In this document: positions 746 through 58,841 of the stretch, piece after piece
How positions within the stretch are numbered: position 1 is the first letter of the stretch
Layout of the letters: each line of letters starts with the position of its first letter
IMG/VR virus record: IMGVR_UViG_3300017754_001396
Coordinates: 282-64,281 of that record
Source of the DNA: a virus
Taxonomy: Duplodnaviria; Caudoviricetes
DNA: 64,000 nt
Reading direction: 5' to 3' (one strand)
Made by a program: the position numbers and the translations under genes
The notes under the pieces: model-generated
Seen by the model: the letters and a program-made list of their open reading frames with translations, nothing else
The model's database searches: none
What the model was told of the DNA's origin: nothing

Positions 746-988
746 CTACTTTCTTTTAGCCCGTCGCTCGTTTCGTTGACGTTCCGCGCGGTCGCTCTTA
801 TGCATCTGAAAACATACGTCGTTGAATACCCGCTCTTTTTTGTCTTCGAACCGAACCTTTCGACGTCCGTTTGTTGTTTCTTTTTGTTTGTGCTTAACTC
901 TTACGTCCTTACTAAATGTTATAACTAAATCGTTTTTAAAGGTTGTTGTTGTTGTTACTCGTGTGTGTGTGTTTGTTGTTGCTTTCAT
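746..988 (-). CDS. small basic hypothetical protein, possibly the first early gene
   Basis: 80-aa K/R-rich ORF starting about 25 nt downstream of a TACTTTTG box (1020-1013). Confidence 0.55.
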   Translation of the reverse strand: MKATTNTHTRVTTTTTFKNDLVITFSKDVRVKHKQKETTNGRRKVRFEDKKERVFNDVCFQMHKSDRAERQRNERRAKRK

Positions 989-1012
989 ATCGTTTCCGTT
1001 TGATTACATTGC

Positions 1013-1020
1013 CAAAAGTA
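1013..1020 (-). promoter_or_regulatory. Bacteroidota sigma-A -7 box (TACTTTTG)
   Basis: Matches TAnnTTTG just upstream of 746..988. Confidence 0.55.
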
Positions 1021-1452
1021 TGTATAAAGTTTTGTTTTAAAGCAAAAAAAGTAAAAAAAGATTTGAATTAATTTTTAGTGTGCTGAAAATCAATTAGTTA
1101 GAGATTGGTTGCAAAGGGAATAAATGTAGTTATATGTAGTGATATTGTGCATAAAGCTATGCATTAGTGGTAATTAGTGTGGGCATGAATAGCAGGTGAA
1201 ATAGAACGTATATGTTTATGGTAGTACGCCGTTATACGTCATATATAGTTTACCAAAGCTAAGGAAAGGTTGAGGTAAAGAGACGTAAAGAACTAGTAGT
1301 CAATGCGTTAGGGAAAAACTAGTATGCGGTACGTGGGAAGCATGGGCAGCGTAACGGGCTGGAATAAAGATAGTTATGGTATGTTATGTGAAGCGTTTGT
1401 TGAAGTGGTTTTCCCTGTGGAGAGGGGAGGGGTACTGATGTATAGTGTGGTA

Positions 1453-7816: not shown

Positions 7817-8163
7817 CATAATAGACTAAGCTGATAGGTTTTGACTAAATCTTTGTTGAAGCCTATTTCTTTATGCTCCCATACGCATCCATCCTTTCTG
7901 TCAACAGTTTTTACGTATTGGTCAATGATTGAATCAAATAACTTTAATTCTTTTTTATTCATCTTCTTGAACGACATATTGTGGTACTTACCAAGCTCCA
8001 AGTCAAATGAGCTATTTCTGTTGTACCAATAAAGATGCATTTCTTCTTTTCTTCTATCGTATTCAAACGCAGCCGTCATATACGACCTAATCACAAAGTG
8101 CTGAGTCTTGTCCTTTAAGATGTCTTTTAGCTTATTACTCGAATATACTGAAGAGGTGCTCAT
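7816..8163 (-). CDS. hypothetical protein
   Basis: 115-aa ORF overlapping the end of the nuclease gene. Confidence 0.65.
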   Translation of the reverse strand: MSTSSVYSSNKLKDILKDKTQHFVIRSYMTAAFEYDRRKEEMHLYWYNRNSSFDLELGKYHNMSFKKMNKKELKLFDSIIDQYVKTVDRKDGCVWEHKEIGFNKDLVKTYQLSLL

Positions 8164-8905
8164 TTAGATGCTTTTGGCGACCAAGCATATAATCTACCTC
8201 ATCCTGAAGCTCAGCCATTTTGAATACTTTGTATGTGTCGTTCTTTTCGTTCACCCAACAAATATATGAACTTCCAAGTTTAAGTTTAGTATTTCTGTGT
8301 ACAATTTTTTTATAAACACCTGTTTGTAGAGAAAATTTGTTGTAGTCTGTTTGGTAAAGATGTTCTAATCCATTAATCATTGTTGTCTTAAATGGATTGT
8401 ATGTGGATATCTGTTTACTTGTTTTGTAATCCCATACTTGAAGCTCTTCTTCTCTTAGGTTGTAAAATAACTTATCCATACACCCGCAAACACCAAGCTC
8501 GTAGTCGCCTACTATCCATTCCATTTTTACGGGTATAAGCCATCCCTTTGAATCCTCAAAGAACATATCAATTATCTCTGCTGTCTTCTTTGGAAGATAC
8601 TCTTCATCAAAATTGTAGTGCTTAGAAGAGAATTTTAGCTCTGCATACTTGTGAAGTTCTGTCCCTTTGTTTGCTGCTATTATTTTCTTTTGTTCCCACT
8701 CAAGAAGGACTAGTGCTTTGTTTAAGCCATGCTTTGTAGCATACTTTTCAGCCTGTGCATTTGAATCAAACGGAGTCTCGTACTTTTTGATTAGCGTAGT
8801 TACGGATGTGCATACCTTGTCTCTGTACTTGTAGGAATGGTCGTCTTCGTTGAAGCTTATATCCCTAAAGGCATCTAGGTCAGATATGAAATCAAGCATA
8901 TTCAT
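8135..8905 (-). CDS. PD-(D/E)XK exonuclease (lambda-exo/Cas4-like)
   Basis: GTxLH, E-W-I-V, CGCMDKL, WDYKT, YxxQxxxY motifs. Confidence 0.8.
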   Translation of the reverse strand: MNMLDFISDLDAFRDISFNEDDHSYKYRDKVCTSVTTLIKKYETPFDSNAQAEKYATKHGLNKALVLLEWEQKKIIAANKGTELHKYAELKFSSKHYNFDEEYLPKKTAEIIDMFFEDSKGWLIPVKMEWIVGDYELGVCGCMDKLFYNLREEELQVWDYKTSKQISTYNPFKTTMINGLEHLYQTDYNKFSLQTGVYKKIVHRNTKLKLGSSYICWVNEKNDTYKVFKMAELQDEVDYMLGRQKHLNEHLFSIFE

Positions 8906-9173
8906 TCTCTACCTCCTCTAAAAGTTCCTCAACAGCTTTTTGCATTGCAAGGTCTTCATCGTTGTATGGTCTGAATCTATTTGACACAAAGAACTGAAAC
9001 TTGCTATTTTCGTCAATAGGAGCTTCTTCAAGCCTATATCCCAATACCATTCGCTGCCTAGCAAGATGCTTACAGTCAATCACGGTGTACACCTCACCTT
9101 TCTTAATCCACGTTCCAATAAACCCATCAGGTTTACCTTTATCGTTCAAACATATTACCTTAAAATCGTTCAT
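8892..9173 (-). CDS. hypothetical protein (likely start MNDFKVICLND at 9173)
   Basis: Start re-assigned to the first ATG after the leader terminator; the upstream in-frame extension runs through the hairpin. Confidence 0.65.
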   Translation of the reverse strand: MNDFKVICLNDKGKPDGFIGTWIKKGEVYTVIDCKHLARQRMVLGYRLEEAPIDENSKFQFFVSNRFRPYNDEDLAMQKAVEELLEEVENEYA

Positions 9174-9183
9174 ATCAAAAAAT

Positions 9184-9278
9184 AAAAAACCCGCCAGTGG
9201 ATGCAGCACTCAGCGGGATTCTATAACTAAACCAAATCAAATGAAATTGCGAATCTGTGATGTTAGTCTGCATCTCTA
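9184..9278 (-). ncRNA. candidate structured leader/attenuator RNA, copy 1 (5' GAUGCAG pairs with terminator loop CUGCAUC)
   Basis: TAACTTTG box 9292-9285; GATGCAG 9274-9268; hairpin CCCGCTGAGTG-CTGCATC-CACTGGCGGG plus T6 (9217-9184). Confidence 0.6.
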
Positions 9279-9284
9279 ACAGGA

Positions 9285-9292
9285 CAAAGTTA
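9285..9292 (-). promoter_or_regulatory. -7 box (TAACTTTG)
   Basis: TAnnTTTG, divergent from the 9489 promoter. Confidence 0.65.
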
Positions 9293-9310
9293 AGGATGTT
9301 TTTTTAATCT

Positions 9311-9474
9311 CCAAATTTTTAATAAAGAAAAAAGAAAAAATAAAGAAAGAAAGAAAAGAAAAGAACCAAAAGAAAAGAAAGAAAGAAAAAGATTATATTA
9401 TCGTATATACTACGTATATACTCTATATAATCAAAAAAGAAAAAAGAAACAACCCCAAACCCCAAAAATTTTGG
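9311..9474. repeat. purine-rich low-complexity tract with a central palindromic core
   Basis: AAAGAAAAAAGAAA at 9324 and 9436; GTATATAC x2 (9403, 9414) between GATTATA/TATAATC; near-inverted CCAAATTTTT/AAAAATTTTGG ends. Confidence 0.75.
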
Positions 9475-20686: not shown

Positions 20687-21139
20687 TTAATGCTCTATGG
20701 ATTTTAAATAATTGTTGTATGCATTATATGCTTCTTCTCTTGTTTTAAATCTTCCTATCCTTCTGTTCTTACCGTTGATGTGAATCCATTTTTCGTATCT
20801 AATGCAATTTTTTAGTGTTATTTCCTTTATGGGTTTATCAGATAAATAGTGTATTGAATTTTCTCTACTTGTGACCCATTCTAAGTTTTCTATTCTGTTA
20901 TCTGTTTTTATGCCATTTATATGATTTACTACTTTTTTATTATATTTATTTTCTAAAAAATGTAGGCATACTATTCTATGTATAGACACTTGTTTTTTGT
21001 CTATGGTGACTCTTTCATATCCTCTATTATTTACATTTTTTTTTAATTTCCTTTTGTTTAATACAGAATATACATTTCCAAAATTAGAAACTCTATACTT
21101 TCCATTTGTTCCGCTAATATCTACCCAGATTTCTTCCAT
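20687..21139 (-). CDS. NUMOD4-HNH homing endonuclease (likely start MEEIW at 21139)
   Basis: EIW..I...Y.VSNFG (NUMOD4); HR.V..HF...VNHINGIKTDNRIENLEWVT (HNH); AP2-like C-terminus; antisense to the late arm. Confidence 0.85.
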   Translation of the reverse strand: MEEIWVDISGTNGKYRVSNFGNVYSVLNKRKLKKNVNNRGYERVTIDKKQVSIHRIVCLHFLENKYNKKVVNHINGIKTDNRIENLEWVTSRENSIHYLSDKPIKEITLKNCIRYEKWIHINGKNRRIGRFKTREEAYNAYNNYLKSIEH

Positions 21140-21144
21140 AAAAT

Positions 21145-21223
21145 AAAAAACCCCATGAATCCGAGGTGGTAGACTCTTCTCCATAGGGATTTACTAAAAT
21201 CTTAAACAGTTGCTACCACACAA
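21145..21223 (-). ncRNA. candidate structured leader/attenuator RNA, copy 2 (5' GUGGUAG pairs with terminator loop CUACCAC)
   Basis: TATATTTG box 21236-21229; GTGGTAG 21219-21213; hairpin CCCTATGGA..GAG-tCTACCAC-CTC..TTCATGGGG plus T6. Confidence 0.6.
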
Positions 21224-21228
21224 CGAAA

Positions 21229-21258
21229 CAAATATAGTCATATTTTTTGATATATTTG
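21229..21258. promoter_or_regulatory. back-to-back -7 boxes (TATATTTG on - at 21236-21229; TATATTTG on + at 21251-21258)
   Basis: Both match TAnnTTTG; they would drive the HNH and muzzle genes divergently. Confidence 0.65.
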
Positions 21259-50868: not shown

Positions 50869-51252
50869 TTAAAGAGGCTGCGCAATCTGCTCACGACATA
50901 TCATATAAAATACATTTCGAGCCAATGCCCCCAAATCATAAAAATCCTTTGAAGGAATTTGATTTAGTTCTAATAATTCTGGAATAGCAATAAACACATC
51001 TTCTGAAATTAAAACATTCAATTGCTCATAAGTAAATTCTTTTACTGTATCGTGTGTTTTGAAATATTTTTGTTGTAAATATTCCGAAAATGCTTTTAAT
51101 GACTTATCAATATCAACCTTTGCTCTATGTTGGTTTCCTGCAAGCCAATAAGCCATTGCCCCTGTAAAATCACTTAGCATCAAGTGAAATGTTTCATTTC
51201 TAAAACTCTCACTAATTTCTCTGTTTGTTAAACTAAATTTTGTCTTTTCCAT
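50869..51252 (-). CDS. hypothetical protein carried on an integron-type cassette
   Basis: 127-aa ORF bracketed by GTTAGCCACC (51297-51288) and GGTGGCTAAC (50865-50856). Confidence 0.7.
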   Translation of the reverse strand: MEKTKFSLTNREISESFRNETFHLMLSDFTGAMAYWLAGNQHRAKVDIDKSLKAFSEYLQQKYFKTHDTVKEFTYEQLNVLISEDVFIAIPELLELNQIPSKDFYDLGALARNVFYMICREQIAQPL

Positions 51253-51290
51253 TTTTATTTGTTTTTAAAATTAAATTACTAAAATACGGT

Positions 51291-51385
51291 GGCTAACAAA
51301 GGTTATAAGTAATGCAGCCACCAAGTGTAGTGCTAATTTGATACGGTATACAAGGCTACACTACTCATAACCTCAACCGTTATAC
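51291..51385 (-). mobile_element. attC-like recombination site (95 bp)
   Basis: R''-like GTATAAC containing the upstream stop codon, 20-bp inner inverted repeat (17/20 match), R'-like GTTAGCC. Confidence 0.65.
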
Positions 51386-58404: not shown

Positions 58405-58483
58405 GTTTATTTGTTTTTAGTTAATACTTAATTGAATCCAACATATTGCTTTTGTTAGATTATAAATTGAGCAAAGGTGATAG

Positions 58484-58522
58484 AAAATAAGTCTACCCCC
58501 TACCCCCAAGGAGAGAGTAGAC
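58484..58522 (-). terminator. intrinsic terminator-like hairpin
   Basis: GTCTACTCTCTCC...GGTAGGGGGTAGAC then TTATTTT. Confidence 0.55.
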
Positions 58523-58618
58523 CTATTAACCACCATATTGCTTCCGTTGAGTTACTCATATCGCTTTTGGCTGATAGCGGGTAATAAGTCTTTGAACACC
58601 CATTTCTATCATTTAAGA

Positions 58619-58711
58619 TTAATTATAGACATCACAGTAAAACAGGATGTCTTTTCCTTCCTTATGAGTTGGAGAAGTACCTTTGCTTATGTACGCTGCC
58701 CTATCTAACAT
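58619..58711 (-). CDS. possible 30-aa micro-ORF (MLDRAAYISKGTSPTHKEGKDILFYCDVYN)
   Basis: First ATG after leader element 3; the ATG lies inside a CCCTAT/ATAGGG hairpin. Confidence 0.3.
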   Translation of the reverse strand: MLDRAAYISKGTSPTHKEGKDILFYCDVYN

Positions 58712-58720
58712 AGGGGAATT

Positions 58721-58812
58721 AAAAAACCCCCATCTAGTCGCAATCAATGGGGGCTATTGTTTAAGGTACAGAAACCTTTTTTATTACAGCACAAACATCA
58801 TTTGCGACAATG
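58721..58812 (-). ncRNA. candidate structured leader/attenuator RNA, copy 3 (5' GUCGCAA pairs with terminator loop UUGCGAC)
   Basis: TAACTTTG box 58826-58819; GTCGCAA 58808-58802; hairpin CCCCCAT-tgaTTGCGACtag-ATGGGGG plus T6. Confidence 0.6.
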
Positions 58813-58841
58813 ATAGAACAAAGTTATACAAAAATTCCATA

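Follow-up and report, generated by a model that had tools for sequence, protein, structure and literature searches.

Candidate leader RNAs of Bacteroidota phages with a 5' word complementary to the loop of their own terminator

In lambdoid phages, the promoter PR', the 6S RNA and the terminator tR' form a unit in which a short terminated RNA precedes an operon that is expressed by read-through via Q. In the antisense-RNA attenuators of pT181 and pIP501, a separate antisense transcript kisses a leader hairpin and chooses between two mutually exclusive folds. In Bacillus subtilis pyrG, poly-G at the 5' end pairs with the 5' arm of the terminator; this pairing is exclusive and antiterminating, and needs reiterative transcription. 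The CI RNA of P4, the c4 RNA of P1 and P7 and the fold-back of the hok mRNA are examples of distant pairing within the same transcript that controls termination or translation of a harmful gene. Little is known of how Bacteroidota and their phages control their genes; they have neither Shine-Dalgarno-led initiation nor a classical sigma-70 promoter. Concerning terminators, a kissing loop in the guanidine-IV (mepA) riboswitch interferes with full formation of the terminator stem (PMC11611296). Here we describe three leader loci in a 64,000-nucleotide (nt) stretch of viral DNA (the window), which is almost the whole of a 64,281-bp IMG/VR virus record estimated to be 95% complete. In each of them a short word near the 5' end is complementary to the loop of a downstream terminator. 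We read them, with a probability of roughly 0.5, as copies of a leader-RNA family of Bacteroidota phages whose self-clamped members carry a terminator and would act as a default-off gate before genes.

Paired leaders in the window and in its relatives

The window has a GC content of 37.7%, and boxes of the Bacteroidota type (TAnnTTTG) precede most of its gene blocks. The three loci lie on the minus strand and share one layout: a TAnnTTTG box is followed by a 7-nt word, then an A/U-rich linker and a GC-rich hairpin with six T (T6), and an ATG lies 5-10 nt further on (Table 1). The terminator stems are 7-11 bp long, and the box ends 4 nt before the inferred transcription start (+1). A first-pass annotation of the window had described this layout, and every feature was found at its position on the minus strand. 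It had also claimed that the terminator loop holds the reverse complement of the locus's own heptamer, which is exact in all three cases (GATGCAG/CTGCATC, GTGGTAG/CTACCAC and GTCGCAA/TTGCGAC at loci 1, 2 and 3); the loop of locus 1 is precisely 7 nt long (CTGCATC, 9206-9200, minus strand). The RNA unit measures roughly 75-97 nt, in support of the 80-95 nt proposed there.

Both strands of the window were scanned for a box, a 5' hairpin and a terminator with a complement of at least 6 nt between hairpin loop and terminator loop; exactly the three minus-strand sites were found and none on the plus strand. The leader loci account for three of the five strong minus-strand terminators in the window. 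Shuffling of the loops, with the positional constraint not applied, gave p = 0.009-0.08 per locus. With regard to a separate antisense RNA gene overlapping a leader, no box on the opposite strand lies inside leaders 1 and 2; one plus-strand box (58678) faces leader 3, but the pattern by itself turns up about once in 1.4 kb.

Relatives were collected with two anchors: the gene of 93 amino acids (aa) behind locus 1 (11 viral and 74 metagenome loci) and the portal gene (77 further loci; 1.1 Mb in total). These contigs come from IMG/VR and metagenome records and are cited below by handle. They contain 37 non-identical paired leaders with 31 distinct words, each of which matches its own terminator loop. 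Orthologous leaders precede the 93-aa gene, the HNH gene behind locus 2 and the neighbour of locus 3, with differing word/loop pairs. Words of the relatives include AATGCAG, AGTGCAG, GTGCGG, ATGCGG, GTTAGGA, GTGAGTT and ATACGG, and also AGCAATTAG, GTGTTGGC, GCGATAAAG, AGAAATTGG, AGACTAGCA and AGATTAGCA; the leaders of the HNH orthologues carry GTAGCAGT, GTCGTCG or CTGCAAC. A direct search with the neighbour proteins of locus 3 gave no relatives on viral contigs; an orthologue of the locus was found in a 65.7-kb relative (G001), with the word CATCTCAC.

A complement of at least 6 nt (Watson-Crick) between the 5' segment and its own loop is present in 21 of 24 representatives, and at most 9 of 24 were reached across 20,000 random reassignments. 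Own pairs have a mean duplex energy of -12.0 kcal/mol, foreign pairs one of -6.1 kcal/mol; identity and reverse decoys never reached a 6-nt match. Based on a structure-blind MAFFT alignment of one clade, 89.6% of the cells are paired vs 19-46% when the partner is slid, and both sides change in three of seven pairs. One compensatory step leads from AGACTAGCA to AGATTAGCA, where the loop changes to match. Also, a U.G pair of one lineage is U-A or C-G in sister lineages. This U.G intermediate is tolerated on the transcribed strand only and fits a pairing in RNA of this strand. On this comparative evidence the word/loop pairing is selected and points to an RNA-level interaction, as the first-pass annotation had proposed from three heptamers that each fit their own loop.

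Chance, or an inverted repeat acting in the DNA (a protein site, mobile-element ends or a hairpin used in replication), would account for single 7-nt matches, whose p values are modest. Against this stand the 31 different words that fit their own loops, the strand-specific tolerance of G.U and the fixed position relative to promoter and terminator. An inserted element is also a misfit, as the hairpin that contains one repeat arm has its other arm outside the repeat. We consider an origin of this kind extremely improbable. Promoter-to-terminator units of the relatives in which the pairing is absent mostly have tight loops of 4-7 nt, i.e. they are ordinary terminators.

In Flavobacterium, a transcriptome study places the sigma-A box at -12 to -5 (PMC9723704), and +1 was therefore taken as the fifth base after the G of the box. 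The base at this position is a purine in all 37 leaders. In the window copies the word sits in the loop of a hairpin whose stem starts at the inferred +1; as predicted from this fold, the terminator tip is contacted by a 5'-terminal hairpin in a kissing loop, and no free 5' end is involved. The pseudoknot between 5' end and terminator loop proposed in the first-pass annotation thus stands as a long-range 5'/loop pairing, but its free 5' end does not hold in the window; the true 5'-end form is found in relatives. The kissing type comprises 18 of the 37 leaders, including all three window copies, and in 13 the 5' end is free and paired from +1 or +2. The 5' nucleotides are always paired in the predicted folds, and the linker is predicted to be largely open.

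Beyond the closest relatives, a unit of the kissing type lies opposite the CI-type repressor gene of the cultured Bacteroides phage BS-TP2 (L261:11163-11300), with the word/loop pair GTTGCGG/CCGCAAC at the promoter divergent from the repressor. The same hairpins and word/loop pair stand beside a homologous repressor gene in a Parabacteroides assembly, a Bacteroides assembly and a Bacteroidetes metagenome-assembled genome. These repressor-linked leaders keep the same word and show covariation in the first stem. The next open reading frame (ORF) after the Parabacteroides copy encodes a small hydrophobic protein. No paired unit was found in crAss001 (first 100 kb of a 102.7-kb record), in 320 kb of Bacteroides chromosome, in about 40 kb of Bacteroides phage C3_41T2LP or in about 21 kb of a spring-water podovirus.

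A proposed default-off gate and the alternatives

As judged by sequence and comparison, a host-type sigma-A promoter starts an RNA that is base-paired from +1. A word of 6-10 nt within about the first 15 nt, displayed by the loop of a 5'-terminal hairpin or itself the free 5' end, pairs with the loop of an intrinsic terminator that ends 5-20 nt before the start codon. In the proposed mechanism, the terminator would make the unit default-off, with the downstream genes made from read-through transcripts only, and the 5'/loop helix would close the RNA into a kissing complex or pseudoknot that shields the 5' end and occupies or masks the terminator loop. At loci 1 and 2, no TAnnTTTG lies between terminator and gene; the sole promoter box there is upstream of a strong terminator, so that expression of the genes should require read-through, and a default-off gate accounts for this most economically. 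Also, the leader is absent at some orthologous positions; the promoter box there lies about 20 nt from the ATG, and the leader would therefore be an added gate. The genes behind the leaders are often nucleases (HNH homing endonuclease, PD-(D/E)XK operon), and a default-off gate suits both the nuclease operon and a homing endonuclease gene that lies antisense among late genes.

Several findings weigh against such a gate. The conserved pairing uses the loop only and is not mutually exclusive with the terminator stem, and no conserved alternative antiterminator fold was found among the leader copies (an extended pairing between 5' end and 3' arm at locus 1 is not kept elsewhere). Locus 3 has no real gene directly behind it; the ATG at 58711 opens a frame of 30 codons only. 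In some orthologous leaders (L150/G001, L007 and the L221/L223 group) the terminator is kept and the pairing is lost. A complement between the loop and the start-codon region, as described below for some relatives, is absent from all three window copies.

Since the terminator stem can form alongside the 5'/loop helix, the latter would not be a classical antiterminator. The kissing loop of guanidine-IV at the terminator tip can oppose termination (PMC11611296), and the helix described here may thus raise or lower termination. Antitermination by strand invasion was considered and rejected: it is plausible at locus 1, but elsewhere needs bases upstream of +1, and it is not conserved. A leader peptide of the pyrBI/trp type was also rejected; an ATG frame runs through the terminator in 5 of the 37 leaders, and no ATG precedes the terminator in 19.

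The terminated RNA could itself be the product, i.e. a highly stable small RNA that acts in trans through its single-stranded A/U-rich linker, with the 5' end sealed on the terminator loop and the 3' end in the terminator. This would fit locus 3, which is followed by only the 30-codon frame and about 300 nt free of ORFs, and it agrees with 5' nucleotides that are always paired and a linker that is largely open. However, nearly all other copies have a conserved gene 5-20 nt past the T-tract with no further promoter, no target was found, and the same genomic position can be without the leader. Conservation of the linker sequence is confined to the closest relatives, and a universal linker motif was rejected. 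We regard a product of this kind as rather unlikely.

The fold may also be a platform for regulated antitermination, in which a phage or host factor or the RNA polymerase recognises its shape and not its sequence, as in the lambdoid PR'-tR' unit with Q or in put of HK022. The order of promoter, short RNA, terminator and operon agrees with this, as do words that vary freely while the shape is kept and the position of the unit at the lytic promoter, beside the CI-type repressor of BS-TP2 and related prophages. On the other side, there is no conserved sequence to serve as a binding site, and no antiterminator-like protein was found among the 29 window proteins scanned against Pfam. A Q-like antiterminator gene or binding element was likewise not found, which is weak evidence, as most small proteins have no family. 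A platform of this type appears unlikely.

In several groups of relatives, the terminator loop also complements 7-10 nt at or just before the start codon, and the 5' word resembles that region (L108/L109, L123/L129/L186/L238, L202, L213/L217 and the G001 orthologue of locus 3, in which the same 8-mer stands at +5 and at -8..-1). Matches of at least 8 nt between loop and start region occur in 5 of 25 own pairs vs 12 of 600 foreign pairs. For these relatives the gate model would give the 5' word the part of a decoy that keeps the start codon free. A primary role in translation would go further: the terminator loop would be an anti-start-codon in the read-through mRNA and the 5' word a competing decoy, and translation would need an intact 5' end. 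The matches beside the ATG speak for this, but most leaders have no such complement, the window copies included, and it seems improbable as the primary role. Downstream complements of the terminator loops at the window loci are not beyond chance.

The leaders may follow a general attenuation principle of Bacteroidota phages that uses neither ligand nor protein: the RNA's own 5' end, whether free or presented by a hairpin, would read the loop of a promoter-proximal terminator and thereby set termination, RNA lifetime and, in some lineages, access to the start codon. With an orthogonal word pair for each unit, such leaders would be programmable RNA gates for toxic and early genes. From the sequence comparisons at hand we advance this principle only tentatively.

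Feature coordinates and neighbouring sequences

The coordinates of the leaders and of the genes behind them are given in Table 1. In agreement with the first-pass annotation, which placed locus 1 before the PD-(D/E)XK operon, the nuclease gene follows the 93-aa gene behind this locus.

Table 1. Features of the leader loci in the window (positions 1 to 64,000) and of related prophage leaders (handles)
Feature	Position	Strand	Remarks
Locus 1 promoter box TAACTTTG	9285..9292	-	Bacteroidota sigma-A type; inferred +1 = G9280
Locus 1 5'-terminal hairpin	9261..9281	-	Stem GTTAG/CTAAC; loop carries GATGCAG (9274-9268)
Locus 1 A/U-rich linker	9218..9260	-	3' part conserved in closest relatives only
Locus 1 intrinsic terminator	9184..9217	-	Hairpin 9217-9190, 11-bp bulged stem; T6 9189-9184
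First gene after locus 1	8892..9173	-	93 aa; ATG 9173; no Pfam family
PD-(D/E)XK nuclease gene	8135-8905	-	After the 93-aa gene
Locus 2 promoter box TATATTTG	21229..21236	-	Inferred +1 = G21224
Locus 2 5'-terminal hairpin	21209..21224	-	Stem GTTG/CAAC; loop carries GTGGTAG (21219-21213)
Locus 2 terminator	21145..21188	-	9-bp lower stem; apical GAG/CTC stem presents CTACCAC (21172-21166); T6 21150-21145
HNH/NUMOD4 homing endonuclease gene behind locus 2	20687..21139	-	ATG 21139; antisense inside late-gene block
Locus 3 promoter box TAACTTTG	58819..58826	-	Inferred +1 = A58814
Locus 3 5'-terminal hairpin	58797..58814	-	Stem ATCATT/AATGAT; loop GTCGCA (word GTCGCAA 58808-58802)
Locus 3 terminator	58721..58753	-	8-bp stem; 11-nt loop with TTGCGAC (58743-58737); T6 58726-58721
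Stretch behind locus 3	58405..58720	-	About 300 nt with no long ORF; second strong hairpin and T-tract 58524-58491
BS-TP2-like leaders in Bacteroides/Parabacteroides prophages	L263, L264, L265, about 850-1050	-	Kissing type

The 93-aa protein is a member of a widespread phage family with an invariant core (W22, K24, G26, E27, Y29 and others); no relative of it was found in the bacterial genomes searched. Among the GenBank phages searched, nothing related to the window DNA, to the 93-aa protein or to a 391-aa protein was found, and one metatranscriptome run (labelled freshwater) contained 5% of the sequence words. Just upstream of the locus 1 promoter, a divergent intergenic region contains a low-complexity polypyrimidine (T/C) tract of about 100 nt (9300-9400), which is kept in relatives and in some of them is adjacent to a TA-rich repeat (L004, L006, L096:17380-17560). 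This tract may be an origin or another element acting at the DNA level.

Concerning locus 2, another ATG (21184) lies in the 5' arm of the terminator, in frame with the HNH gene; a start there would add 15 codons, and translation would then cross the terminator. The second hairpin and T-tract behind locus 3 could possibly give rise to a second small RNA. In one orthologous leader (L005:1290-1460) the linker contains a tandem duplication of about 45 nt, within which the terminator's 5' arm appears a second time. Four relatives (L234:2973, L235:2308, L185:2698 and L184:2053, plus strand) show short units in which a tight-loop terminator follows a box after about 50-70 nt, and in three of the four another box comes right behind the unit; these units may be stand-alone small RNAs that do not use 5'/loop pairing.

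A possible fourth copy in the window (51380-51280) was not counted; it has no promoter box, and its p value is 0.23. The region (51280-51385) lies directly past a stop codon and contains a terminator-like hairpin whose loop, ATAACCT, complements AGGTTAT 50 nt upstream. The gene behind it (50869-51252) has a sub-threshold match to the Thoeris inhibitor Tad5 (24.5 bits; cut-off 27).

Significance and comparison with known systems

The comparative support is very strong for an element that is found in front of nuclease and replication genes and of a temperate gut phage's lytic promoter. It provides a testable example of an RNA whose 5' end engages the loop of its own terminator, and such a leader could explain how homing endonucleases and early operons are tightly limited in these phages. 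The word/loop pairs would be a ready-made set of orthogonal RNA parts. Direct experiments are feasible with the cultured phage BS-TP2 and with the prophage in the complete genome of Bacteroides sp. KFT8.

The first-pass annotation could not assign the element to a named RNA family, and this holds: an Rfam search at gathering score gave no match in the window or in 19 leader-bearing related loci, and a permissive search (E up to 10) returned unrelated sub-threshold matches only. One of these, the trpB motif, reached 19-22 bits where the cut-off is 59, and its alignment covers only the terminator and U-rich parts. Full-text literature searches found no description of such a leader element. Judged from these searches and from the covariation, the leader is an RNA control element that is absent from Rfam.

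Based on the layout, guanidine-IV is similar in that the loop of an upstream hairpin kisses the loop of a terminator hairpin in a leader directly before a gene (PMC11611296). Its ligand-binding loops are conserved, whereas those of the phage leaders vary freely and are perfect complements of 6-10 bp outside the stem, with no ligand site evident and no Rfam family match. The leaders of P4 CI, P1/P7 c4 and hok share a phage or plasmid setting and long-distance pairing inside one transcript; they differ in architecture and in processed RNAs that act in trans, and their Rfam families gave no match here. As here, the promoter of the lambdoid PR'-tR' unit gives a short terminated RNA, and the operon right behind it depends on read-through; the lambdoid unit is not known to have a pairing between 5' end and terminator loop. 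The pT181 and pIP501 attenuators also couple loop-loop kissing to an intrinsic terminator before a gene and allow orthogonal word pairs, but in the phage leaders a single RNA contains both partners, with no sign of an exclusive fold. As in pyrG, the extreme 5' end of the nascent transcript would pair with part of a downstream leader terminator; the phage leaders differ in using the terminator loop as partner and in having a templated 5' word.
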